Positions 26,730 through 43,501 of a stretch of DNA of 43,501 nucleotides are shown here, one piece after another. The stretch covers positions 930,001-973,501 of the forward strand of contig CP120463.1 of NCBI GenBank assembly GCA_034226945.1. Reading direction: 5' to 3'. Under the pieces are notes generated by a model. The model saw only the letters and a program-made list of their open reading frames with translations. It was not told the DNA's origin and did not search any database. Made by a program: the position numbers and the translations under genes. The DNA comes from Picochlorum sp. SENEW3. Taxonomy: Eukaryota. How positions within the stretch are numbered: the stretch's first letter is position 1; each line of letters begins with the position of its first letter.

Positions 26730-27060
26730 TTCTCACACGTTGGATGATATTCGTGATCTGCAGTGAATATAATCAAATTAACTTGAGGAAATCTGTCGTA
26801 TGTGGTCGACTGGATCCTTCTTATGGGCCCACCGTAGTGGACATTATCGCAGCTGGAAACTCAATCCCAAATCTCATCCGAAGCAGGCCTAGGCCCGGCC
26901 ATGGGTCGCCACCCACAAGAGAGATATCTCTCCGGAGAGAATTCACGCCTGTCAAATACGACAGTTGATGGGAGCCATGTTAAAAAACAACGCGAAGTCG
27001 TCTCAAACACAGTGCGGGCACGCACGGGGAAGGACACCATATCGATTCCTCAAATTAATT

Positions 27061-28420
27061 ATGATTGGAACAATTGCCAGACGGATCAAGTCGCCGCAGG
27101 CCAGCAAGGACGCCAGGCTCTTGCTAGGGCTGCAGAGATTCGTGTCCAGTGCTGCTTCGGAGGAATTGACTGTGGAGGTGCGTATCGATGGTCCAAAATG
27201 ATATATGTGTATCATATAGGATGTTGGGTTTGTATCTGCGACCCCCATGGGCGAGAGTCCGTCGTGCATGGCCGGGATGAGCTTTTGTCTTGGTTCTTCC
27301 CTCACGATGTGCGGGTTTTCTCCATTTAAGACGTTACATCATGTATGCAATTCAGATAAATCCATTTAAGACGCACAAATGTGACGGTCCATCGACGACG
27401 GTGACCACGACGAAGGACGAACTTGTAGCATTTTTCACCGACATGTACAGAATGAGACGCATGGAGATTACAGCGGATATGCTATACAAATCTAAGCAAA
27501 TCCGTGGGTTCTGTCATTTGTACGATGGTCAGGAGGCGGTTGCCGTTGGTATGGAGGCTAGCACCACCAAGAATGATTCGATCATCACATCGTACAGAGA
27601 CCACGCACTCTATTTATCCCGCGGTGGGACTGTGCACGGTGTGATTGCTGAGCTCATGGGGAAGTACACGGGGGCATCCAAGGGTAAAGGAGGCTCCATG
27701 CACATGTACAGCAAGGAGAGCAACTTTTACGGAGGGCAGGGCATTGTGGGAGCTCAAGTTCCCGTTGGAGCAGGGTTGGCACTGGCCCATCAATATTTGG
27801 ACGATGGAAGCATCGGCATCACCATGTACGGGGATGGTGCTGCGAACCAAGGACAAGTCTTTGAAGCTTTCAATATGGCGGCATTGTGGGATTTGCCATG
27901 CTTGTTTGTCTGCGAGAACAATCATTATGGAATGGGAACTGCAGAATGGAGAGCAGCCAAGTCTCCTGCATTCTATTCCAGAGGAGATTACATGCCCGGA
28001 ATGAAGGTCGATGGAATGGATGTGCTTGCAGTGAAGCAGGCTTTTGCATATGCCAAAAAGTACGCCCTCGAGAATGGGCCCATGATTCTCGAGATGGACA
28101 CATACAGGTACCACGGGCACTCCATGTCCGATCCTGGCAGCACATATCGCTCGCGCGATGAGATCAGCAATATTCGGCAAAAGCGCGACCCAATCGAGCA
28201 CGTCCGCAGACTTTTGTTGGACAATAAAATGTGCGAGGCATCAGAGCTGAAGGCGATCGAGAAGAGCCTGAAAAAAGAGATTGACAGTGCAGTGGAAAAG
28301 GCCAAGTCTGATCCGTACCCCCCATTAGACGAGGTCTTTTCTCATGTGTATCTTCAAGCTGATGGCATTAAAGTTCGAGGGGCACGTCCTGGCGTTCATC
28401 ATAAATTGATTTCTGGTTGA
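27061..28420 (+). CDS. PDHA: Mitochondrial pyruvate dehydrogenase E1 alpha subunit
   Basis: Exons 27061-27177 (presequence-like) and 27356-28420. [23 protein letters not shown] motif [10 protein letters not shown]...NN, and the phosphorylation loop [13 protein letters not shown]. Confidence 0.97.
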
Positions 28421-28772
28421 TGCAATTAATTGCAAATATTTGCATGTAGCAAATTTGTTTTTAAAGCGTTGCGTCCTTGTCCTCGTCTTGGGTGCATATG
28501 GTCGACCTGCATTGTTTCCAACTCGTTCAACTTCTCCTAGGCCTAGGTTCGGCTTTATTTGTTTTAGTAGCAGTCGGATGTCGAATCGTGGACACATGAC
28601 TGCGACGACCTTGGGATTTGCCGTCGCATTCCGTGGACATGCCATTGGGCGCTTCTTCGAGTTGTAATCTTCTCCTTTTGCGGCTATTGGTGATATGTGT
28701 GAGATTAAAAAGGATTTTTGGAGATTCATTTGGGACCCACACATCCCCAAGTGCCCAAGTGTCTTTTTCCTG

Positions 28773-28872
28773 CTGTAATTGAACACAATAAAAAATCGTG
28801 ACCCTGCGTCGATTTCATAACAAATGTTATACGGTCGCGTGGTCGTCTTTTTTTCATTGTATGTTTTTACGG
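28773..28872. repeat. Imperfect inverted repeat (arm L 28773-28803, arm R 28841-28872), hairpin unit 1
   Basis: ctgtaattgaacacaataaaaaatcgtgacc ... ggtcgtctttttttcattgtatgtttttacgg. The insert is itself self-complementary (ataaca-aa-tgttat). Confidence 0.85.
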
Positions 28873-29624
28873 ACGAAAACACGACGAGCGTTTTGTTGAA
28901 ATTGTGTCTCCGGTCGAATGGATGACAGGAGCGGACATCTCTCAAAGAAAAAAGAGACCCTGTGGCTTCCCTCCGCTCTCAATACCCAATCAAAGTCTCC
29001 TTTCCCTATAATGCTGGGCAAAAACACGCTTCCTTCTACCCGTATTACTATGAATCTATAACATGGTTTACCTCCACAAATCGAGCCGTGTACAGATACT
29101 CTCAACAAGCAAGCGTGGCATTCGTGCTCTTGGCGCAACACACTCACTGGCGTCCGGCTGCTTGAGCTTGGTTTTGTTCTTCTGCCGTCTCATTGATTTG
29201 ATTCAACAGTATTGCAATGTCAATTAACGATTCGTGCAGAAACCCATCATCAGGAGAAGGAGAGGTCCTGGTCGTCGTGGCTCTGTCCACTGTGATCGCC
29301 AAGACATTCACGTGGAACGGTTAGGGGCCCTTCTCTGTGGACATGGCCATATGTGGGTCGTATGATGGACTTCTTATGATGCTATGAATCATATTAATGG
29401 CTCTTCCTGCGCATGGGTGACAGCTCTGCAGGCCCCTCCTCCTCCTCCCTACCGATGTGAACGGAAATGACGACGACCAGCTGTGTTTTGAATGGGGAGT
29501 TTCATTCGTTGCGGTGTCAGCAGGACGATTTTGCAAGTATAATGGCATACTCAATTCAATTGAACACTCTAGTGGTAGTAGTAGACCGATCGACCCACTT
29601 CCCAAGTACCCAAGTGTTTTTCTG

Positions 29625-29746
29625 CTGTAATTGAACACAATAAAACACAATAAAAAATCGTGACCAATGCCCCTATGTCCTTATGTCCTTATGTCCCCAT
29701 GTCCTTATGTTGCGTGGTCGCCTTTTTTTATTGTGTCTTTTTACAG
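29625..29746. repeat. Imperfect inverted repeat, hairpin unit 2, with an 8-bp minisatellite insert
   Basis: Arm L 29625-29665 (with a 10-bp internal duplication) and arm R 29716-29746. The insert is cttatgtc-type 8-mers x ~5 at 29671-29710. Confidence 0.85.
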
Positions 29747-32700
29747 ACAAACGCCACGACGAGCGTTGTTGAAATTGTGTCTCCGGTCGAATGGATGACA
29801 GGAGCGGACACCACTGAAAGTGTGAGACCAACACAGACTCTCTACTCCGCTCCCATCAAGCACTCCTCCTCTTGAAGAGTAATAAACACCACGATTATCC
29901 TGTAACATGGTTTATGTCTCCACAATTTTGCAAGCCAACCACAGATACTCCTCTCAACACGCAAGCGTGGCATTAGTTGTTGGCATTCGTGCCAACCCAG
30001 ACACACAACCATTCGCTTCCTTGAGCTTTGGAGTAGTCTGGCGTCTCCTTGATTTGATTCAGAGGGGTTGGAATGACAACCAACGAGCGATTCGTACAGA
30101 AACCCGCCCGGAGGAGAACGTCGTCTTGGCTCTTCAGACCTGTCAATGGCATTCCCGTGAACCTGTTGGGGACCCTTTCTCTCTCTCTCTGGACGTGGTG
30201 GTCATACGCTAGTGGTAGATTTGGTTTATTCTGAATATATGCAAATACGAGTCGTGGCCCTTCGTGGCACCTGCAGGCCTCCTTGTCTCAACAGCCTTGA
30301 CGTGAACGGAATTCTTGTTGACAGGACATTCAACGCATTGACAAACGGGAATACCCCTGTATCATTTCACTACATACATCATGAGGGTCATATTTAAAGC
30401 CAAATATGGTGCTCTGACTTTTTTCTACTCGTTGCACTACCTCGGTCACTGAGGTGTCATGGCCCATGGCTGTAGGTCGGGTTGGTATGGCCAAGGTCTT
30501 TTGTACCTCCCTTGCTGAAATACAATAGTGCTATGTATGCAATCATCGTGTGTCATCATCGTGGTTTGGCAATGTATGTATACACTCTAAGGCCATGGAT
30601 GCACGGTCCACATGGCGGTCCACGTGGGTCCATCCGAGAGCAGATGGACCACACTGCTGTGTAGCATGTGGACATCCATCCGTTCTCATGTGGACCGACC
30701 GTGAGTCCCACCATTTCTCTGCGCAGTATTGATTGTAAGATTCTTGCAATTTAATATGGATACATGAGAAAGGATATGATAGATAGGACGTGCTAGGCGT
30801 GGATGCACGTTCCTGCCCACGAGAGACCTCTTCAACAGTTTTCCCTCTACTACTAGTGTCCATGTCTACTCTCTTCTGTGACACTGCTGTAGAAAATGGT
30901 GTTTTCTTCTTCTTCGTGCTATATGTAAGAAAGCTGGACCGGACCATCGCGCGTCTCTCTCCGTGGTTTTCTCGTCAAAGTATCTTTTTCGACGCCAGTG
31001 TCCCCCTAGTGTCCGTCAACAGCTAGATGTAACTGTCCAGTTTCGGCAGGTGGTCGTCTTTTTTTATCGTGTCTTTTTACGGACGAACATCACGTCGGAA
31101 ATTGTTTCTCCGGTCGAATGGATGACAGGAGCGGACACACTTCAGTGAGAGAGACACAGGGTTGAACAAGCTAGCGTGCTCTTGGCGCAACACACTCACT
31201 GCCATCCGCCTGCTTGGTTTGCTTTCTTCTGTCGTCTCCTTGACTTGATTCCATACTATTATTTTTAAATGTTGGAGTGACAATCAAAGATAAATACTGA
31301 AACCCACCAGGAGAAGAAGAGGTTCCTCGACGTCGTGGCATGTTGCCATGGCTTTGTCGTGAACGGTTGGGGACAGTTTTCTCCCTCTGTAGCCATGCGC
31401 TGGTGGTATACTATCAAAATTGATTTATTAGTTATGAATACATGAATCGTCTTCATGGTTCTCCTTCTTCTTACCCCTCCTGGGGAGCGACTCCTATCTG
31501 CTGCGATGGGAGTGGAATTGGCGACGAAACAGAGTAGGATATTCTGTAGAAACATAGAACATTAGCTTATGTCACGATGCCAAATTTTTGATGCGTCGAA
31601 TGTTGCGGTCCCTTGCGTGATGAGGTCCCAGATACAGTGGTGGCAATAACGCATGTGTGACGCATGCTTGTTCCAAATTCTCTGACCGATTTCGCATCAC
31701 GAGGTATGATGACGCATCCTGTGAGGTATGCTGTGCCCATGCCCAGTTGGGGGGCAGTGACGGCAATATTGAGGGGCATTGAATTATATTCATTCCTTCT
31801 ATGACGGTACATAGATCTTATCAGGCTGCCCCTAGTATGGACAGTGCATGCTGTAGGCCTGTGGGATGCAACCTCTGGGCCTCTTGTGGTGAAACTCCCC
31901 CTTTGTTTGTCGTCGAACGTTGCTCTTTCGCTCTGTGCTTTCCGCTCTTAATTTTTGTTTTCTTTTTCGAACAGATGGATCGATTTGTCCTGCGAGCCTG
32001 GCGTGTGGCTTCTTCTTTTTTTTTTCTTGCCTCGGTTTTGAGGCTGTGCCTGCTCTTGCAATCATCTTCTCAACTCCTTTTCGTGGTTCTTGTTGCTTGG
32101 CAGCCTTTTGAATCTCGACTATTCGACACGGTGTCAAATACTAGTAGAGTCCCATTCAACAACCAACCTATTGAGGGTGAGCTCAGTCCCTTTCTTGTCA
32201 CAGGCTCTTTTTGTGTTGTTGTTCCATTCAATGTTGTTGATCTGGTACAGAGACGCATGGGAATACATTCTGTTTGTTCTTTGTTGTCGTTTTGATTGTT
32301 GTTGTGTAGCAGAGAAACCTTTCTTTTTTTTCTTTAGTAGTTGTAGCTCCTACATTCATTCATCGAGTTCAGAGCAGCATCTCTTGTGATGGCCACATTC
32401 CCTAGTCTTTTGGTGGACAGACAACACCTATCATTTCAATCAAAAACAGATTGAGTCTGCTATATATCTTTTGTTCTTGTATTGTTGATGTACAAGGATA
32501 CGACATACTACTAGAAACACTGCTCAAAAAGCAGTCGCGTGTCAGGACGGGTAGGGAGTGGTGCATGATTCCCAACAGATCCCTGTGCATGTGTGTGAGT
32601 GTCCACATCCATCCTTATATTCACACGTTGCCCTACTTACCATACGATAGAATAGATCGATTAGAACATTCGTGTTATTCTTGTGTTTTCTGAATCCACG

Positions 32701-33059
32701 AATCAGTGTGTGGGTGTGTGTGGAGATATGTATGGAGCTGTTTTGCTGTTTTGTTGGTTGAGTCTGTGGATGGTGGGTGAGCACACATTGTGTGCTATTG
32801 CTATTACTACTACTCTCTTCGTTGTTTCGTTGTTTCTACCTCTAGAGCAGTAACTATTGTTGTTTGTTTTTAGTAAACCGACAGTAATAGTAATAGTTGT
32901 AGAGAAGAAGAAGAACAAAAGGTGTAGTAGCAGAAGAGGTATCTCGTCAAAGGTCTTGTCTCCATCGGGAGGGGTAGATAGACTGAAGGCATCGGTCCGA
33001 CAGAGTATTGGACCGATCAGTAAGGTCGGCCTCTTTTCTTTTCTCGCGAGGCGTGTCCA

Positions 33060-34750
33060 TCCGTACATGAGGACAATAAAAAAGGACGACCATGAAACCA
33101 CACGCTTTATCCCGCTCGGCCACACTCAGCGTGCTTTTTGTGGCTTTTTTCATCTCCCATCACAAGGGACGTTTGACCGGCAGTGTAGTTCTCTCCTCCA
33201 TCAAACACCTCTTCTGATGGGAGCCTGGATACGGAGCACACACAGGTGGAGGAGGAGGATAGAGCTGTGGAACAGTCTTTAAACACGACGAGATCTTCCC
33301 CAAAGAAGCGTCGCAATTGTATACATATAGTACTATCCTACGATGCTCATTGCAACACATGTAGTCTAAGTAAGACAACGTGCCATGCATGCTGCTGATA
33401 CTGAGATGGTTGCTCCAGCATTAGTGCAACGTTACTCTCGTGCTTGCCACAGCTTGCTCCTTGCTTGCTATTGTAGTGAAGAAGACGATTTTTTCATTCT
33501 TTTTCTTGTCTCATGTCTTTTCATATACTTCTTATTGTACCTCTCTCTACCTCATATCTTGTCTGTGAGTCTATCTCCAGGTTCTTATCTTCTTCTTGTG
33601 TGTATGTGTATTTGTGTTTCGTCCTGTTATTATTGGCTGCTTGCTCGTATCGATTGTTGTTGTGCATGTTATTGTCATTATTACTATTTCTCTAACTAGT
33701 AGTAACTGGTATGAGATAGTATCTTGTTTTGATTGCTTTGCTTTGTTGTTTGTTGGTGTGTTGTCTCGTGTTATTATAGCAGCAGCAGTAGTAGTAGTGG
33801 TGGTGGTGTGAATGCTGGATGGTTGTTGATTTATTGTATTGTTGTTGTTGTTGTTGTGTGGGGTGGCTGTTTTAGACACCCTTGCTTGGTTTGGTTGGTA
33901 TTTTTTGGTGGTGGTCCCAGTCAAGTCCTTTAAGAAGTCAAGGGGTGGTGATGATGACGGGAAGATCGCCATTCTTGTTGTTCCGAGATGCTCCCTCTTC
34001 TTTCTTCAGACATGTGGCAGCAGACCACTGTTTGTTTTGCACTGGGTGTGCGACGCTTTTTTTTAATGATGGGTGTTTATTATCATTATTTATATTGGTA
34101 CTCTTCTTCTTACTTACTTACTTCCTTACTTACTTAATATTGTGTCCTTCTGTTGATGTTGCTGTTGTTGTTGTGAAAAAGGACAGAGATTCTTTTCATT
34201 CATGCATAGCATAGCATAGTATAGATTGTTGTTGTGTCATTATGATTATTATGAGATTTGTATCTTTTGATTTTGGTTTTGCTTTGCTTTGCTTTTGTGT
34301 TGGTTGCTGTTGTTGTTGTCTTCTCTTGTTGTTGTAGTAGTAGGAGGAGGAGGAGGAGTAGGAGTAGTAGCAGAGCTTGTGGTGTGCCGTGTCTTTTGTT
34401 GTTGTCGTTGTCGTTGTATATATATATAGGGAGGGTGTTTATTATACTACTTATTATTCTTCTTGATATTGTATTGTATATTCTGGTTCTTTTGGTGTTG
34501 TTTTTGGATGTTTTTTTAGTTGGTGTGTTTTTTTGGTTAGGGTATTTTGGTCTTGTTGGTGGTGTTTTTTCTTGGGTTTATTTTTGATTTTTTGGATATT
34601 TTCTTATTTTTGGGTAGTTTGTATATTATTTAATTTAGAAATCGTGTTTATTTTTGTTTGTGTGGTGGGAGTGGGGTGAATATGTTGTTATATACCCTCA
34701 TTACCCTCCTGCCAAGGAACGACGGTATGCACAGGGTATAGGGTATAGGG
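33060..34750. repeat. T/G-rich low-complexity region 3' of the retrotransposon, copy 1
   Basis: Homologous to 42455-43501, with the closest match between 34222-34750 and ~42979-43501. Contains (GTT)n, (GTA)n, (GGA)n and (TA)n microsatellites and T-runs. Confidence 0.85.
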
Positions 34751-34897
34751 AGCAATACGTAACTGAACGAAGTATACTGATATGAACAAAATGTGGAACA
34801 TTTGGGCTAAGGAAGGGTGTGAAAATGTTGGGGTTGGGTTGTGTTGAAGGGTGGGGGTCTACTATGGGCTAAGGGCGGATGTTGCCCCTAGGGCCAG

Positions 34898-34908
34898 GGT
34901 TCAAATCC
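34898..34908 (+). promoter_or_regulatory. Pol III B-box / tRNA T-loop-like motif GGTTCAAATCC, antisense to the LINE 3' UTR
   Basis: Exact B-box consensus inside an imperfect T-arm (caggg-ttcaaat-cctcg), with an A-box/D-loop-like tgggctaagggcgg ~30 bp upstream. No complete cloverleaf could be built. Confidence 0.4.
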
Positions 34909-35833
34909 TCGCCCCGGTTGGCTGTGTTGTGACTGGATGACGTGACTCCCAGAGGAGGGCGCCTCGCTAGGAGAGTTCCTGGGGCGCGGATTCTGCTGAG
35001 TCAGCTTGTCTAGGAGGGCGCGCTCGAATCTTTTAGATTCTCTGCCCATAGTATGGATAAGGTTCCCTTGGAGCCTGGTGCTATCCTACTATGGGGGCAG
35101 CTATCATCTCCCATCCAGCCCACTCGATATGCATCCTCCTCCGTGTCCGTTTCGGACACCATTAGGAATTTTGTGCTATTTCTGGGTTGTGTGGGTTGTC
35201 ACTGCTTGGTTACCACGAGCAGTCTGTGCAGGCATGCACGGTGCTCCATGGGTGAGGGGGACTCTAGTGTTCCCCACCTATGTTGACTACCCAGACGTCC
35301 CATTTCAGTGCAATAATTCCTAATGTCTTGTGGAGGCAGTCCTAGTCAGGTACAGGCCAGCCCAGGTAGCATGAGAGAGGAGCCAGGAGGCAGCACTGGC
35401 TCCTGTCATGGTTCCTCTCATGCCCACAGTTTCAGACACAATTCCAGCTCCCAGCATCCTCTATTCCAGCGCCAGAGTTCCAAGAAACGGTTGACATGAG
35501 TGGTGAGTCGGTTGTTTCTCTTCCTGGGAGGGACATGGGCAAGAAAACCTCGACGACGATGTGTTTCAAACTGCACTGCAATTCTTCGCCAAAGCATGCA
35601 TCATGTCGTGGCTTCATTGTCTGTGCTGTTTGCTCTTGATGTTTTCTCGTCGTCGAGGGAAAAGAGTCCCATGTTTCACCAGGGGTCACAGCTTGTCTTT
35701 CATCCCTCTTTGCTCAGTCTCCAAGGATCAGTGTGCCCAGGGAGATCCACAGCTAGGCCGTACCAGTGGCATTGGCTTATCCAGATCCTCAAGGGACCTG
35801 GATGCTCGCGCTCCTACTTCAGTGTATCCAGAA

Positions 35834-38800
35834 CTATACTAATGGGGCGCGAGACTCAGGAAATTGCCCAGTCCTGAGGCTGTTATGGAGCAAACAGGCT
35901 CTCCTCCACAGGGAGGTGATCTTTGACTGTTTGAGAGTGGTCTCGGGTTTCTGGGACCCGTGGCCTGCAGCATGGCTTGGACCCTCTCTCTCTGATCTTG
36001 ATGATGATGGCTGTCTTGGTGGTGGAGTCTTCTTGGTTGTTTTACGTTCATGGCGGCGAAGGAACTTGTCTATGGCTCTAGTGTGTCTCGTCATGACACT
36101 TTTGATAAATGCTGCCGTTTGTTGGTATGGCGGCGGTGCTGGTGATGGGGGTTCTATCTCATTCTCTGGTGGTGGTGGTGATGGTGTTTCTGGATCTGCA
36201 TACAGCCAGTATTTGGTCAGTTCTGTGAAGAGATCATTGTTGCAATATTTGTCAGCGATTAACCCGGTGCCTCCAAGGCAGAGCATCCAGAGATCCTCGT
36301 CTGTATCCATGATGCCCTCTACATTTAGTAATGCTCTAAAGTGGTCTAGCATGCTGTTTAGGTACGTATTTCTCAATTCTGCATAGGCTGTGCATTCCAT
36401 GCCTAGGTGGTGAAGGGTGTCTTTGGTTTGTGTCTTGCACGAGCAGCAGTAATGGTCGCTTTTGATTCCATTAATGCGAAGATTGGTTTGAACTGCAGGT
36501 GCAAAATGTCTCTGTCTGTATAGAAGATTACCATATCCATTAAGTCTTGCTCTTATTAATGGTGTAATGAAGATTCCCTCCCTTGTTCCTGATTTGAGGC
36601 CTTGTTTCAATAGTGCGGTTGCTGTCGCGAGGCAGTATTGATATGGCACTGCCACTGTGGATTTTGCTCTTTGGCAGGTCGTAATGACCCTTCTAATCCT
36701 CTCTGTCTTTTTTATGTGTTTCGTCAGCTCCTTGGTGGTGGGTATGGTGGTGGTGGTGGGTTGTTGCAGGTCATAGAATGGTTGGTGGTGGTGATGGGCA
36801 ATTGTCCTGTGGGTGTTGGCAAGTTGCTGTAGTGCTCCTTTGGTGGCTTTGTGGATCCATGTTGTGTTGCAGGTGGTGGTAATTGCTGGCTGAGTCAGTT
36901 CCCAGATCCATTGCTGGTACTGGGCCTCTGGCGAGGTGTCTGTGGCATGTGGTGGTGGTGTGTGCAGCGCTGTCACAGCTGCCTCTAGTATTTGTCTATG
37001 GTCGTGGTGGAGGAGAAGGTCCTGTATCCATGTTTTTGACTGTGTCCATTTCCTAATAGCTCTGGTAGGCGCGGTGGTGATGGCGGCTTGGATCGATGGC
37101 AGTCCCAGCTCAATTGTGGCCGAGTCTCTTCTGTAGGTGGCTTTGGCTTTTCTGGTGCCCACTATGGCTAGTTGCATGGCATCGCTATAAATTGTGTGAA
37201 TATCTGTGTGGTCCTGGCAGGGCCCAGCGCCCCAAATTTCGGCCCCATATGTGAGGGTGGGCAGCAACAGTCCTTTGATGCACACCGCCTTGAGAGCCAG
37301 TGGGACTCGGGCATTAGCAAGCATTGGCGCCAAAGCCCGCAGCGCTTGCTCTCCAGCTTCTAGTCTACCTTTTCTCAATGTGTCTGTGCTAAGATTAAGA
37401 TCAATTTGGAGCCCCAGGTATGTGTACTGATCTACTACAGGGATGGGCTGGCCTTGACACATGAATTGATCTGGCGCTTCCTTGGCTTGGGCCTGCAGGT
37501 GTTGGAACTCTGGGAGGGGCACCATGAGGCCACATTTGTCGTGGCCTACTTGCATGTGATAGGTGTCACACCAAGTCTGAAATTTGGCAAGAGCTGCCTG
37601 GATGCCCTCAGCGTGTGGGGCCAGGAGCACGGCGTCGTCGGCCACCAACAGCCCTCGCATGTGGCCCACCGTCCTTCCTTGTCTGTCTGGCACCTCCACC
37701 CCCTCCAGGCCGTCCATGGCGTGGTCAATGAACAGACTAAACAATAGTGGTGACAATGTGTCCCCTTGTCGGACCCCTCGCTGGATGGGTGCTGGTGCGG
37801 TGGTGGTACCTTGCTGGTGGTGTTGGAGCACGAATGAGCCCGACTGGTACACCTTGTCTATGAACCTGTATATTTTCCCCTCACCCCTTTGGCATGTAAC
37901 ACGTGTAGCATTGCGGCATGAGGTACTGTATCGAACGCTTTTTTGAGGTCCATGAAGGCCACGTAGGTGGGCTGCCCCCAGTGGTGCCTTCTCAAGTGGC
38001 ACACCTCGTGGAGGGCTGCCACGTTTTGCAGACATTCCTCTCCTGGCCTGAAGCCCGCCTGCTCCTTGGCCACCTCGGGGGTATGGTTCTGTATTCTATT
38101 CGCTGCTATTTTGGTAGCCAGTTTGAGCAGCGTCGGCATGAGGCTGATGCCTCTCTTGTTGCCCACCTCCTGGGCATCTTTCCCCGGCTTGTCCAGAGCT
38201 ACCAACACACTGGTGTTGAGTTCCTGAGACACCTGTCCATCCAGCATCGCTTGGCACTGCTCCAGAAGTGCTGCTGCCATCGGATTGGGCGGCTCCATCG
38301 CCGTGGGCGGCCCCTTGCACATTTTCAGCACTTCGTTTGGCAGGCCATCCAGCCCAGGTGCCTTGGAGGTGGTTGCCCTTGCCAAGGCGGTCGACACCTC
38401 TGGCCAGCTCACCTCCACATCCAGCTCCTTGCATTCTCCTTCCTCGGGCAGCGGGTGTTGCTGCTCCCACCACTCTCTGCTCTGTGGGTGCGGGTCCACC
38501 GCCAGGTGTGCGAAGTGGGCCATGAGGACTCCCGTCTTGCTGTCCTCGTCATACACCAGCTGCCCTGTGGCGGGGTCTCGCAGCGGCACACCCAAGGGGC
38601 TCCCCACCTGTTTCTTCACCGTCTTCTTGATGTATTTCCATACTTGTTCCCAGTCGCCCCTCTTGGCTGCCTCAGTGGCCTTGCGTGTGGCCTCTGTCCA
38701 GCCTCTCTGCCTAGCTTTGGCCTTGAGCTCTTTGGCCTTGGTGGTGGCCTCCCTCAGTGCCTGGGCATCTTCCTCTGTACTAGGCGCCCCTGTTCTGGCC

Positions 38801-40444
38801 GAACTCTTTTTCTCTATTCGTTTCCGTATTCTAATGCGTTTTTGCACCGCGTTGGCCACTGCCAACGACATGCGCTTCCTCTTCCTCTTCCTCTGTCCAA
38901 GCTCGTCCTTGTCCTGCAGTCTGCTGCGGTCCCTCCTGTCTCTGGGGTCTTTGATGCACCCATGGCGGCGAAGCACCCGCATCGCCGTTCTATAAAATAC
39001 TTCGGGTGGATTGGCGATGCTGGGCGGCGCCTCTGCTCCTTCCAGTCCCTGTCTCAGCTGTCCTCCTTCTCTGTCCTGATGGATGACCACGGCGACGTGG
39101 AGCCACTCTGGGTCATGCACAATCTGCTGTTCCCTGGCTGCCACGAGGTCCAGGTCTACCAATGGAGTCGCTCCGACACGGTGAGTCGACTCTACAGCAT
39201 CTCCAGCCCGAAGCCCAGCTCCTGCTCCAGCAGCCTCCTGTCGTCCTTCTACAAGGGCCTCCTCCCCACTCGCTGAGGGGGGCCCTTCTTCTCGTGTTCG
39301 CTGTCTCTGCTTCGCCTTTGGGCTCCTGAAGCCAACGACAATAGGTGCATGATCCGATTGCAGGTCCTCGCGGCAGGACAGTAGGCTGGTGGCGTGTTTG
39401 TTGAACAGTTTCCGAGCAGGCGTGTTCACCATGAAGTGGTCCAGGGTGGTCTCCTTGACACCATCCTTGCACTTCAACACCCTCGTGGGGTGTTGGTTGG
39501 CCACTACTGTCATGTGAAGCGGGCCAGGGTGCAGCATAACTTCCCCTCTGGTGAGCAGCTCGTCCAGGTCGCCCCTGTCGGGGCAGTTGAAGTCTCCCAT
39601 GACCACCACGGCCAGGGCGTCTCCATACCTGGCGTACCACTGCTGCACCAGGCTGCCCAGCCTCTTGACCACCTGGGTTCGTCGCGTTTCTTTCCCCCCT
39701 GCCCCCCTTGTTGGTATGTACACATTCACCAGGACGCACTGGGCATCCACCACCACCCCTTCCCCTGCCAGCACGGCCTGGACGTTGGCATCCCCAGTGT
39801 CCAACGCTCGGACGTGCAGCCCCCGTGCCACCAGCATGCACATCCCCCAACACCCCGCCAGGTCATCCTGAACCGGGGCACTCAACGTGTAGTACCCCGG
39901 GACCTCGACCTGGCGGTCTGTCAGCCCCACGTGGGTCTCCTGCAGCCCCACCACCGCCGGACGCTCGCGCCGCAGCAGGCGCACAAACGCCTTGCGCTTG
40001 CCCGCCTGTGCCCCTTTGCCCCACCCCGCGCAGTTCCAGCTCATCACCCGAGCACGATGCCTGGCTTGCACCGGCGAGTCGCGCTCCTCCCACCCCCACG
40101 GCAATACACACCAGGACGCACCGTCCACCGGCGCCAGCATAGCTGCCCGCCCGGCGGTGGTCCCCCACAAACACGGCCACCAGGTCCTGCATCCGGCGTG
40201 CGGACACCCCTGGCGGCTCGATTTCAAACATGACAGGCAAAAAACCCGACCCAACCCTCCCCCGACGACGACGACCCAGCCACACACGCTTCACACGAAC
40301 ACGCCCAGCTCCAGTGCCACGATCAAACACCTTGTGCACCACCTCCGCAGCCCCACGGCGAGAACCTACACACAAACCACGCAGTCGCCACCGGGTGTAC
40401 ACCACCTGGCGACTCGTCAAATCGGAGTCCGAGACACGGGCCAT
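35834..40444 (-). pseudogene. Retrotransposon polyprotein split over three reading frames (apparent frameshifts near 40162-40166 and 37873-37880)
   Basis: Joins ORF-track segments 39863..40465 (from MARVSDSD at 40444), 37858..40287 and 35834..38035. RT continuity requires HAKGVRGK-IYRFIDKVY across a G4A4 run. The upstream join in a G5 run is less certain. These may be assembly errors rather than real lesions. Confidence 0.7.
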
Positions 40445-41227
40445 AGCAGGGACGCACGGCCACAAAGATCAACAACAAGGAAAAGCACCTGGCTCCCCAG
40501 CAGCACCAGCAGCACCAGCAGCAGCGACGTAAACTAATAGTAGTATATATATATATCTAAAGATATATAGGCAAACTCCTCGACGGTCTCTACGAGGACT
40601 CGCTCCGGGCTCGGAGGCGACGTGACCACACGCACAACAACGGCAGGCGACAGTCGGATCAACACCACCACCCCCCTTTCACCTCGACGAGTAGTACCGA
40701 GAAAAACACTTCAAATTGAGGACGAGCAACGGGCGGGCAGGTCACGAAGTGGGCTGCCAGCACGTCCGCGAGTTTCAATTTGAATTTTCGAATGCCCATC
40801 CATCCACAGTGGGGGTGGCCTTGGCCAGGGCAAGGGCTCACCAGGAGAGGACACACAGAGAGAGAGAGCAGCAGACACTGCTTAAATAGAACATTTTCGA
40901 AATGTATGTGGAGGCACGACACCTCAGGATCTGCCCCCCGTTGCCGGGTGGACTGCTGTTCAATATCGTTTATATGTGTCTCAAGATTGCATACAATGGA
41001 ACGAAGCGCATGTCTTCCATCCCTCACACGCCTGTCACCGTGGTGTGTCGACATGGCATGCCGTGGCACGCAACACCGTGGCAGAAGCAGGGTAGGCGTG
41101 ATAGTTCGTGCAGATACATTATTGAGGGTACTTCAATTCAGATGAACTATTCTACCAGACGGCACCTGCACCCTGTCGCCGTGTTGGATGGCACAGAAGT
41201 CGAGAGTCGCGCGAGTGGTCGACCTTT

Positions 41228-41482
41228 CTGTAATTGAACACAATAAAAAATCACGACCACCCTGTGCGACCATGGCCCGAGTTTTTGCCCGAGCTGTCCT
41301 CGTCAGACAACATCCGGCCTCATGGGTGGTCCTCTTTTTTTATTGTGTCTTTTTACGGACTTTTTGCTGATGTGGACAGGGCGCCTCCCATGCCCGTGAC
41401 AGCGCCCTGGTGTAGTCTCGTACGGCGAGCTGTGTCCATCGAGAATTTCTCCGTAAATGAGGACAATAAAAAAGGGCGACCA
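41228..41482. repeat. Triple alternating-orientation motif cluster (L 41228-41258, R 41328-41358, L' 41451-41482)
   Basis: Same ~31-bp motif family as at 28773, 28841, 29625, 29716, 31052, 33061 and 42385, with unrelated GC-rich inserts between the arms. Confidence 0.85.
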
Positions 41483-42454
41483 CCATGTCTCCTGAGACCA
41501 CGTCTGCCTTGTCTAATGGTGGCTCGTGGTTTTCGCTGGCTGGCATGTTCTTTCATTCTTCTTCTACCCTACCCCCATCCACAAGGGGTGTTGGACCGGC
41601 GACGGAAAAGAAGTGGTAGATTTTGTTCTTGTGATCTCCTCCTCCTTCGATCCAAGACCTGGTCTGATGGGAGCCTGGATGTGGAGGAGGGCGAGGACAG
41701 CCAGCTGTGAAAAAGCATGCACAAGTTGTAGCAGAGAGCTACATCCCTGTAGGAGAGATCTGGTCATCATGGTCAATTTCATATACTGAGAAGATTTATT
41801 CTCATGTAACAACTTCTAATTCAAACTATCTTGTGAAGGAAGAGAGAACCCTCTGTACATTGGTTGGTATTCTATTCCATCCTCTTCTATCGAACCTCAC
41901 TGCGTGTGAAGGTTGAACGCTCTGTGTTGGCAACGACACGAGAGTGTATTGGCAGTACGTTGTGTAACCTGCGAAGGAAGTCCAGGCCACGACTGGCAAT
42001 GTACGCTGCCACAAGAAGTGTAGCAGAGGAATGGGTCGGGCTGTTTTGCTGTGCGATATTTTATTCGTAGATTTTATTGTTGTTGTCTTTTCCGCTCGGT
42101 ATTGTTTCTTCTTCTTCTCCAGTGAAGAAAGGGTAGGGTGCCTTAGTGTGGGTTTGGGTAGGGTATATCTTAGGGTATTTTGTGTGCGCATGGTGGTGCA
42201 TTTTGCTGTTTTTGTTGGTTGCGAAGATGTGTTCATGCTGAAGAGTAGTTCAAGCGATTAGTTAATTATGTTTGCGTCCTGCGTGTGTGTTTGTGTTCGT
42301 GTTGCGGAGGTGTGTGTACTATTGGCTTATGTAGCCTCATTGCCCTCTCCACAAAGTTCGAGATTGGCACAGGGGGGCTCCCAGGGTCATCTTTTTTTAT
42401 TGTGTCTTTTTACGGACTTTTGGGCGTTGTGGCTGTGAAGATCCTGCCCCCATC

Positions 42455-43501
42455 TCCCATCACGAGAGGAGTTTGACGGGCGAAAAAAACACGTGGTTAC
42501 GAACACGTGTGTTTGTTTTCCTATCCTCCCTCTTCTCCCTATTCTCCTATCGAAGACCTCCTCTGATGGGGGCGCCTGGATATGTGGAGCACAGCAGTCT
42601 TTCTTTGGTGTAAAGCACGACCAGATCTTCCCATTTTTTTCCCACGAAGCGTCGCATTTATATGCTACCCTCATTCCAGCAACACATGAAACCAACATAA
42701 GTAAGCATGCGATGCATGATGATGATATTGACATACTTGTTCCAGCAATGGTGCTACAAAGGACAAGGTGCTTGCCACATCTTGCTACTTGCTTGCTTGC
42801 TGTTGTGAAACAAAGACAATTCTCTTTTCCATTCTTTCTTGTTTCATCCCTTTTACGCATTCTTTTCATATATACGTCTACTATCTCATATGACTATATG
42901 TTGTCTGTGAGTCTATCTCCAGGTTGTTCTCTTCTTGTGTGTGTGTTTTGGTCTGTTCTGTCCTGTTGATTGCTCGTCTAGATTGTTGTGTCATTATGAT
43001 TATTAGCGGGGATTTTTATCTTTCCATTTTGGTTTGCTTTGCTTCTTTTGTGTTGGTTGCTGTTGTTGTTATTGTCTTCTCTTGTTGTTGTAGTAGGAGG
43101 AGGAGGAGCAGTAATAGTAGCAGAGCTTGTGGTGTGCCGTGTCTTTTGTTGTTGTCGTTGTTGTTGTTGTATATATAGTATAGGTGCTTATTATACTACT
43201 TATTATTCTTCTTGATATTGTATTGTATATTCTCGTTCTTTTGGTGGTGTTTTTGGATGTTTTTTTGGTTGGTGTGTTTTTTTGGTTAGGGTATTTTGGT
43301 CTTGTTGGTGGTGTTTTTTCTTGGCTTTATTTTTGATTTTTTGGATATTTTCTTATTTTTGGGTAGTTTGTATATTATTTAATTTAGAAATTGTGTTTAT
43401 TTTTTGTTTGTGTGGTGGGAGTGGGGTGAATATGGTGTTATATACCCTCATTACCCTCACTGCCAAGGAACGACGGTATGCACAGGGTATAGGGTATAGG
43501 G
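42455..43501. repeat. Second copy of the retrotransposon 3'-flank region, running off the window; probable 3' end of the next element
   Basis: tataccctcattaccctc...gccaaggaacgacggtatgcacagggtatagggtataggg occurs at both 34691 and 43441 (offset 8750), preceded by about 450 bp of highly similar T-rich sequence. Confidence 0.88.

Follow-up and report, generated by a model that had tools for sequence, protein, structure and literature searches.

The repeat-rich end of this Picochlorum sp. SENEW3 window (the whole analysed stretch of 43,501 bp, contig CP120463.1) raises the question of why one short sequence recurs there in both orientations, on either side of a retroelement, while its surroundings diverge. 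We found 10 copies of a three-block motif, GT-CYGTAA-N6-ACAATAAAAAA-N4-GACC-A, spanning positions 28773–42415. Our best explanation, held tentatively and at somewhat less than an even chance, is that the motif is a putative protein-bound boundary of transcription units in subtelomere-type DNA.

The core ACAATAAAAAA, searched with at most 1 mismatch, has 11 matches, all inside 28785–42403, compared to 0.97 expected from 100 shuffles (largest 4). With at most 3 mismatches allowed, a 21-position consensus matches 9 times in the window and never in 1–28772; the degenerate tenth copy at 28841 was found by the core search and missed by the consensus. The sequence-only reading had listed ten copies and none in the 28 kb of genes. 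All ten were located at the noted sites, both searches find 0 copies among the genes, and the motif is restricted to the repeat-rich tail. While the motif itself is real, its proposed length of about 31 bp is too short, as the conserved unit covers approximately 36–38 bp, CYGTAA being preceded by GT and GACC followed by A(C). The copies also keep fixed spacers according to type, as had been noted: TTGAAC/TCRY in L, AAAGAC/AGNN in R and ATGAGG/GGRC in L'. The types recur in metagenome relatives. The features of the region are as follows.

27281–28420, + strand: dehydrogenase E1 component, the last ordinary gene; its 3' UTR extends into the first L copy
28734–31340, no strand: tandem A repeats that have diverged, with RNA contigs: units A1 (28734–29591), A2 (29592–~30300) and A3 (31050–~31340)
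28773–28803, + strand: motif copy, type L (CTGTAA...), 353 nt past the stop of the E1 gene
28841–28871, − strand: motif copy, type R, degenerate (ACAATGAAAAA), left end of A1
29625–29665, + strand: motif copy, type L, with an internal 10-bp duplication, right end of A1
29716–29746, − strand: motif copy, type R, left end of A2
31052–31082, − strand: motif copy, type R, solo, left end of A3; A1/A2 homology begins 2 nt before the copy
33061–33091, + strand: motif copy, type L', then ATG, start of unit B1
33061–34750, + strand: unit B1, with L', a conserved head, a T/G-rich tail, then telomere-like words and (GGGTATA)2
33155–33222, + strand: stem-loop conserved in the B head (TCCCATCA...TGATGGGA, plus inner helices), with pairing and covariation
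34751–40540, − strand: probable L1-like LINE (APE + RT), frameshifted; right (5') limit approximate
41228–41258, + strand: motif copy, type L, 94% identical to related locus L016
41328–41426, − strand: motif copy, type R (41328–41358), and adjoining 68-nt block, with identity to L016
41451–41481, + strand: motif copy, type L', start of unit B2
41451 to about 42190, + strand: unit B2, ending in telomere-like words
42385–42415, − strand: motif copy, type R, solo, ahead of unit B3
42385–43501, + strand: unit B3, ending in a (GGGTATA)2 junction like that of B1

The retroelement carries Exo_endo_phos and RVT_1 domains, with intact relatives of 1541 and 1583 aa, and by its sequence is probably an L1-like LINE. 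Its 3' end adjoins the telomere-like (GGGTATA)n tract of B1. It lies outside the motif family: the suggestion that the motif copies are partners or targets of the reverse transcriptase fails, since the LINE has no sequence in common with the motif and none of 36 fetched loci, motif-bearing relatives included, contains LINE coding sequence. Clusters of the LINE Zepp were reportedly described by Higashiyama in 1997. The region resembles the Zepp and Zepp-like clusters of Chlorella, Coccomyxa and Chlamydomonas, which are telomeric or centromeric, in that an APE and RT LINE lies in the one stretch of a compact trebouxiophyte chromosome region that is rich in repeats and adjoins telomere-like sequence (excerpted text of PMC11005252). 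It is not a nested Zepp-type cluster, because there is one frameshifted copy and a probable second beyond the window end, and the LINE and the motif family are unconnected.

The A units share 69–83% identity and are non-coding, with no preferred reading frame. The homology of A3 to A1 and A2, as well as that of copies 41328 and 42385 to the A-unit R copies, begins 2–5 nt outside the GGTC end of the motif. B units start 10–40 nt from L', and B3 has a reverse R in its place. Per 500 bp, the end of B1 has 5 telomere-like words on the G strand, that of B2 also 5 and that of B3 has 3, compared to 0.3 in genes, and no C-strand words occur at these ends. (GGGTATA)2 is found at 34734 and 43485. The last bases of the window are repeat, and neither the window nor the related loci contain a canonical telomere array.

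Green-algal subtelomeres contain species-specific repeats, such as Sultan and Spacer in Chlamydomonas reinhardtii and Subrel in Coccomyxa, or shared end sequences as in Ostreococcus (excerpted text of PMC8287924). Measured against that text, the likeness extends to tandem, non-coding, species-specific units, a unit border with telomere-like sequence, unit ends that are best conserved, transcribed non-repeat spacers and transposable elements beside the arrays, and copies that are more similar within a locus than between loci. In contrast, the window lacks a telomere, and its units are few and highly diverged (64–86%). What is conserved here is one element, about 36 bp long and present in both orientations, and the excerpt of PMC8287924 describes no such oriented short element.

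Is the motif conserved for its own sake, or does it only mark the ends of units that spread? We identified 22 further copies on 12 related metagenome loci; in 6 of the 12 loci motif copies form direct pairs. Metagenome loci also contain 8 distinct diverged B copies. In 11 aligned B-family copies, pairwise identity is 95% over the motif and 33–54% in the flanks. The 12 motif positions outside the search constraint, scored separately to avoid search bias, are 91% identical. The arms are thus far better kept than their flanks, as the sequence-only reading had claimed, and together with the absence from genes this upholds its view that the array is not simple satellite decay. Between L, R and R-type copies 12 kb apart, the common sequence amounts to only the 31–38 nt of the motif. 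One further segment is comparably preserved: next to R 41328, a 68-nt block that includes an 8-bp GC hairpin in its predicted fold is 97% identical to L016, as is R itself, while the sequence around them is 58–81% identical. Conservation of the motif independently of its flanks, and at unit edges, was counted in favour of a boundary.

A quite unlikely alternative is that mobile or recombining units terminate in the motif, which would be kept by recent spread or gene conversion and not by function. It could correspond to the terminal inverted repeats of a non-autonomous DNA transposon (R...L, about 830 bp) or to a preferred break-and-join site. Unit A1 indeed has R at its left and L at its right end, inverted, and the GGTC end is a repeated homology breakpoint in four contexts. 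However, the orientation of the motif relative to the unit is reversed in B units, and the L, R and L' types are common to relatives whose flanks are only 66–81% identical. The contrast between a motif at 91–95% and flanks at 33–54% means that recent spread cannot have caused the conservation. We found no target-site duplication as a direct repeat at the three L-insert-R pairs (flanks ..tttcctg/acgaaaac.., ..ttttctg/acaaacgc.. and ..gaccttt/acttttt..), and no transposase near the motif array. The pairs resemble MITEs in their inverted arms of 31–36 bp around 37–69 bp and differ in the lack of target-site duplications, in the far older conservation of the motif than of its flanks, and in the occurrence of solo and direct copies. 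A discrete MITE or TIR unit, raised earlier in the form of tiny MITEs, was rejected: to its left L continues into one A-unit end, to its right R into another, and 4 of the 10 window copies are solo.

Three L-insert-R inverted pairs do exist, with arms 77–82% complementary. Their inserts, one of them an 8-bp minisatellite, show no likeness to one another, and both spacers are mismatched in all three window pairs; in these respects the original description was accurate. The inserts are also unlike the rest of the window, and the spacers are mismatched in L016 as well. The sequence-only reading had suggested that the pairs could be cassettes of structured RNA or ssDNA in which the stem stays constant and the payload varies, linked to the adjacent reverse transcriptase; this appears highly improbable. 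Two of the three window pairs fold better than shuffles (z −4.1 and −4.9), as does the L016 unit (z −6.4), but the first pair (28766–28878) does not (z −0.76, 39/200). The pairing is a consequence of two inverted copies of one conserved motif. Each type keeps its own spacers, which fold as internal loops, and no compensatory changes that would keep the L-R stem were found in the three window pairs or L016. The arms are parts of different repeat units, the ends of neighbouring A units, and copies that are solo or directly paired are conserved equally well. The LINE, whose insertion was at a telomere-like tract, has no sequence in common with the motif. Rfam gave 0 matches at E≤1 over 27000–43501 and only chance-level miRNA matches (E≥0.2) over 41200–41720.

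The sequence-only reading had offered oriented protein-binding sites as its alternative, and our best explanation is a form of that idea. Protein-binding boxes inside repeats include the CENP-B box of alpha satellite and the ACS/Abf1 and Tbf1/Reb1 sites of yeast X and Y' elements. The motif is like them a short, strongly conserved, orientation-tolerant and clustered box in fast-evolving repeats; it has no sequence likeness to them. It could be the putative site of a chromosome-domain protein that does not itself act directly on transcription, such as a CENP-B-like centromere box, an ACS-like origin element or a Tbf1/Reb1-like silencing boundary as in yeast subtelomeres, a possibility that we regard as minor. 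The blocks CYGTAA, ACAATAAAAAA and GACC lie about one helical turn apart, and the motif occurs in either orientation. Copies cluster at 70–160 bp, in direct pairs in half of the related loci and in L-R-L' triples in the window and in loci L014 and L016. The limitation to the repeat-rich tail and the telomere-like ends of B units fit as well. Green-algal centromeres are L1/Zepp-rich (excerpted text of PMC11005252), and for Picochlorum, Hi-C at 10 kb is the sole basis of centromere placement (excerpted text of PMC11092101). Against a role limited to chromosome domains, a forward copy also follows an ordinary small gene in locus L020. The stronger form, in which a dedicated DNA-binding protein would recognize the motif and define a Picochlorum chromosomal domain (centromere-type or origin/boundary-type, present once per chromosome or at every end), is unlikely. 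If true, the motif would be a short, portable sequence that determines chromosome function, in a green alga whose centromeres have so far been located by Hi-C alone.

The B head contains a structured element that begins about 90 nt past L'. In its stem-loop 93.3% of cells are paired, compared to 44–64% when the alignment is slid, and its covariation score was matched by 0 of 500 shuffles. The plus strand is favoured because the pair tables contain 23 G-U cells and 6 C-A cells. L' is immediately upstream of this element in 11 of 12 aligned B copies, and most L' copies continue from GACC into ATG or ACC(ACC)ATG. Both features might point to a compact promoter of repeat non-coding RNAs, with an upstream box and a TATA-like A-run, firing forward into the B head. 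Promoter boxes of multi-copy RNA genes usually outlive their flanks. On the other hand, forward R and L copies would fire into short unconserved inserts, B3 has its reverse R instead of L', and B heads have little RNA cover (contigs only). We give the promoter a low probability. The plus-strand element after L' was also counted towards a boundary.

We infer that termination, protein binding and initiation may all take place at the motif. As a transcription-unit boundary, it would be a free-standing cis-element of about 36 bp, kept constant by selection while the non-coding repeats diverge, placed at the edges of A and B units in this subtelomere-type region and just past the 3' ends of bordering ordinary genes. 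A sequence-specific protein would presumably occupy it. Its forward copy may serve as a green-algal poly(A) signal, at which incoming transcripts would be cut and polyadenylated. Tail-to-tail copies (L-insert-R) would stop transcription from both sides, leaving the insert as an unconstrained gap. The poly(dA:dT) core could hold the site nucleosome-free, so that the next unit, for instance a structured B-head RNA, might start just beyond.

TGTAA (UGUAA) is the poly(A) signal of green algae, known from the Chlamydomonas literature. Read 5' to 3', the motif places a YGTAA word about 12–16 nt before CA or the A-run, downstream of stops in the sense direction. The window is depleted in TGTAA (23 and 14 occurrences on the two strands versus ~42 expected), which lies 28–150 nt downstream of 4 of the 12 long ORFs. 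Each of the four L-type copies, three of them from the window and the other from L016/L014, has CTGTAA. This signal-like behaviour of TGTAA and the sense placement after genes were counted for a boundary. The points counted against it are that TGTAA is present in only 4 of the 10 window copies (the three L and R 29716), with CCGTAA or CCGTAC in the other 6, and that the 31–36 conserved bases, a stretch six times the length of the signal, far exceed what a poly(A) signal needs. The placement after a stop codon in sense orientation has two cases, the E1 gene and a 75-codon ORF in L020 that ends ~85 nt ahead of a forward copy. None of the 11 other long ORFs of the window is followed by the motif, which likewise counted against.

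An RNA contig of run X17 with a spliced GT..AG intron crosses the E1 3' UTR and ends at 28794, 16 nt past TGTAA. As a contig of run X9, probably DNA, stops at the same base, this end may be an assembly break at the repeat, and the coincidence was counted against a boundary, as was the fact that Logan contigs have neither strand nor true 3' ends.

The A units are transcribed. In run X17 the summed depth is 87–155 in bins over 28920–30671, and contigs of the oligo-dT run X19 (30347–30851 and 31407–32615, one with no mismatch) cover units A and X. RNA on A and X units was counted in favour of a boundary; that the A-unit contigs are only 90–95% alike, and so derive from paralogues or another strain, was counted against. 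The orientations fit a boundary and were counted for it: A1, A3 with X, and the 41359–41450 spacer are each flanked so that transcripts leaving on either strand meet a forward copy, and each of the three inserts lies between converging copies. In a bolder variant of the reading with a dedicated DNA-binding protein, likewise unlikely, converging copies would both drive and stop transcription of the two insert strands, producing double-stranded RNA that silences the repeats. B2 also lies between converging copies and is in this respect insert-like, yet it bears a conserved B head, which was counted against a boundary.

An ORF scan of the window shows long, tightly packed ORFs over 1-28420, one of which is 99% identical to a protein named from Picochlorum sp. 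BPE23. The eukaryotic origin is confirmed by RNA contigs that are spliced. From 28.7 kb to the window end there are few genes and many repeats. The genus Picochlorum comprises fast-growing algae used in production, whose genomes are very compact and poor in repeats. The motif, with the structure GT-CYGTAA-N6-ACAATAAAAAA-N4-GACC-A, belongs to the repeat-rich part, and homology between its separate sites extends over 31-38 nt. Its core ACAATAAAAAA, allowing at most one mismatch, has 11 matches, all inside 28785-42403, against 0.97 expected from shuffles. The 21-position consensus with at most three mismatches finds nine copies in the window and none before 28773; the tenth, at 28841, is degenerate and was seen with the core search but not with this consensus. 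The array proposed from sequence alone is therefore real and absent from the gene part before 28773. Its three types carry the fixed spacers first described, and recur in metagenome relatives. All L-type copies read CTGTAA and most R and L' copies CCGTAA. No viral contig matched the motif pattern.

Features of the repeat-rich part of the window
28773, 29625 and 41228, + strand: motif copies of type L
28841, 29716, 31052, 41328 and 42385, - strand: motif copies of type R
33061 and 41451, + strand: motif copies of type L'
28734-29591: repeat unit A1 (unit A has a period of ~860 bp by self-comparison)
from 29592: repeat unit A2
from 31050: repeat unit A3
33061-34750: repeat unit B1, starting at L'
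from 41451: repeat unit B2, starting at L'
from 42385: repeat unit B3, starting after R
~34751-40540, - strand: frameshifted L1-like LINE (APE and RT domains)

The motif copies are parts of these larger, diverged non-coding repeats. Neither A and B nor X, the stretch named jointly with A3, has a preferred reading frame, and six-frame comparison of A, X and the upstream regions gives matches in all frames. The ORFs behind the L' ATG are short and their frames differ among copies. Pfam returned no hits for the window ORF 41234-41710 and for two ORFs of the related metagenome locus L016, and only a sub-threshold zinc-ribbon match (E 0.0075) for the window ORF 28325-28978. In every A unit R forms the left end and L the right end, so that the L-insert-R 'hairpin' is the junction of two adjacent A units.

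This arrangement bears on the earlier proposal that the pairs are structured RNA or ssDNA cassettes with constant stems and variable payloads. The inserts have no match elsewhere in the window. Both spacers differ between L and R alike in every pair, which leaves internal loops and no compensating change, the fold of the first pair is no more stable than those of shuffles, and Rfam has no match. Four of the ten window copies are solo and direct pairs occur in 6 of the 12 related loci, which speaks against both the cassette and a MITE. A hairpin cassette is thus highly improbable, and the data show that the hairpin potential follows from how the motif copies are oriented and is not itself a selected structure. 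That the motif forms the termini of mobile or recombining units is distinctly unlikely: although copies do lie at the ends of A units, the target-site duplications of tiny MITEs are absent around the three pairs. Transib/RSS-like ends were discarded because the spacing does not fit. The suggested tie to the adjacent RT could not be upheld, since self-comparison of the window finds no sequence common to the LINE and the motif, and the LINE protein has no match in the 36 metagenome loci described below. A LINE 3' tail or poly(A) remnant was discarded because homology stops beyond GACC and not at the A-run, and an snRNA with an Sm site beside R is without Rfam support.

When metagenome contigs were scanned once with a 19-position pattern, 36 loci matched. 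Twelve have flanks homologous to the window (64-90% identity) and hold 22 motif copies. Three (L018, L020 and L031) contain the extended motif, but their flanks show no homology; the remaining 21, of low-GC, bacterial-like or animal-like character, are taken as chance matches. In 11 aligned B-family copies, pairwise identity is 95% in the motif, and 91% over the 12 positions left free by the search pattern, against 33-54% in the flanks. A short element more than 90% identical within repeats so little alike clearly points to a function that is specific to its sequence. When the window is compared with L016, the L segment is 94% identical, the R segment 97% and the 68 nt adjoining R 97%, against 58-81% for the surrounding sequence; the arms, and at least one neighbouring block, are therefore kept by selection. 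This block (41359-41426; L016 3134-3200, L014 1029-1083) is 97-100% identical to its relative and contains a perfect 8-bp GC stem (CAGGGCGC...GCGCCCTG). Upstream of the conserved L-R-L' block, L016 carries a 540-codon open frame (96-1718, + strand), at the place matching that of the LINE in the window; its product has no Pfam match and no relation to the LINE's upstream ORF.

Our tentative reading is that the motif, bound by a protein, delimits transcription units in subtelomere-type DNA. The forward L copy lies 353 nt past the stop codon of the E1 dehydrogenase gene. An RNA contig that contains a GT..AG intron crosses the E1 3' UTR and stops at 28794, 16 nt after TGTAA; a contig from a run that is probably DNA ends at the same base, so the assembly may simply have broken off there. 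In L020, a forward copy follows the stop of a 75-codon ORF at a distance of ~85 nt. In the window, TGTAA is rarer than expected by a factor of about two to three (23 and 14 on the two strands against ~42) and often found 28-150 nt past ORF ends, which fits a poly(A) signal in this alga. A1, A3 with X, and the 41359-41450 spacer are bordered in such a way that any transcript running out of them, whichever its strand, encounters a forward copy, and the inserts sit between converging copies. On this reading, transcripts arriving in the forward direction would be stopped and polyadenylated at the motif, and a motif pair would be a two-way stop; the poly(dA:dT) core would keep the site open, and the next unit would start beyond it. 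A and X have RNA contig cover (runs X17, X18 and X19); the B units have little X17 cover, which, as contigs only were aligned, is not evidence of absence. That the motif is instead a promoter is unlikely. Should it be a terminator or boundary, it could be used as it stands in designing transgenes for Picochlorum. A bacterial-type terminator scan places small hairpins ahead of a T-run at four motif copies, which is not evidence in a eukaryote.

The B units end in T/G-rich tails with 5, 5 and 3 G-strand telomere-like words per 500 bp, against 0.3 in genes, and (GGGTATA)2 closes the tail (within 34700-34800 and 43460-43501). Degenerate telomere-like words (TTAGGG, TTTGGG, GTAGGG) also form a patch at 42120-42190, between B2 and B3, which resembles the short telomeric tracts that lie between tandem yeast Y' elements. 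Summed depth of X9, probably a DNA run, over A and B is several-fold that over genes but is not a copy number, and the contig joints that link B1 with B3 stem from paralogues.

The LINE 3' end adjoins (GGGTATA)2 at the G/T-rich end of B1 (34750), and its 5' end is directed away from the genes. A LINE that primes on telomere-like repeats, or is targeted to them, as SART/TRAS and Zepp are, should be oriented in this way. The window copy is broken, since two overlapping ORFs, 37858-40287 and 35834-38035, share its APE-RT frame (35834-40287, - strand). Public data contain intact relatives (1541 and 1583 aa); identities to such relatives are 79% and 55%. The 42-nt junction flank recurs, identical, at the window end (43460-43501), so a second LINE copy probably follows. 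Positions 34760-41183 lack cover in X9 or X17, again contigs only and hence not evidence of absence.

TEs abound in green-algal centromeres, and Zepp-like L1 elements are often among them (PMC11005252; PMC12636532); the centromeres of Picochlorum SENEW3 were placed by Hi-C only (PMC11092101). The repeats found in green-algal subtelomeres are specific to the species and have borders that resemble telomere sequence (PMC8287924), and the BPE23 genome paper mentions contig-breaking repeat areas but, in its available portions, no motif (PMC9615354). In the accessible parts of the literature found on Picochlorum centromeres, subtelomeres, telomeric repeats or BPE23, the motif is not described, nor are centromeres or chromosome ends at sequence level. 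A chromosome-domain binding site is a somewhat unlikely reading of the motif; should it prove to be a centromere, origin or silencing box, work on chromosome maintenance and on artificial chromosomes would gain an entry point.

An Rfam search of the motif regions gave nothing usable. Around the motif copy, L018 (1-130) and L031 show a 44-bp tandem repeat, a (CCCAT)n run and tRNA-like segments, at which ARAGORN found no tRNA; the tRNA-like look of L018 is thus unconfirmed. tRNA scans were likewise empty for the window and 18 loci, among them L017, L021 and L024 from the presumed chance matches. Rfam also has no family for a conserved stem-loop ~90 nt after L' (33155-33222 in B1), in which 93.3% of cells are paired, against 44-64% with partners slid. 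Eleven cells are changed on both sides, a number reached by 1 of 500 shuffles, and none of 500 reaches the covariation score. The pair tables hold 23 G-U cells against 6 C-A cells, and therefore favour the + strand, with L' upstream. The stem-loop recurs at 41570-41680, at 42455-42570 and in loci L005-L026, and may be a multi-copy structured non-coding RNA.
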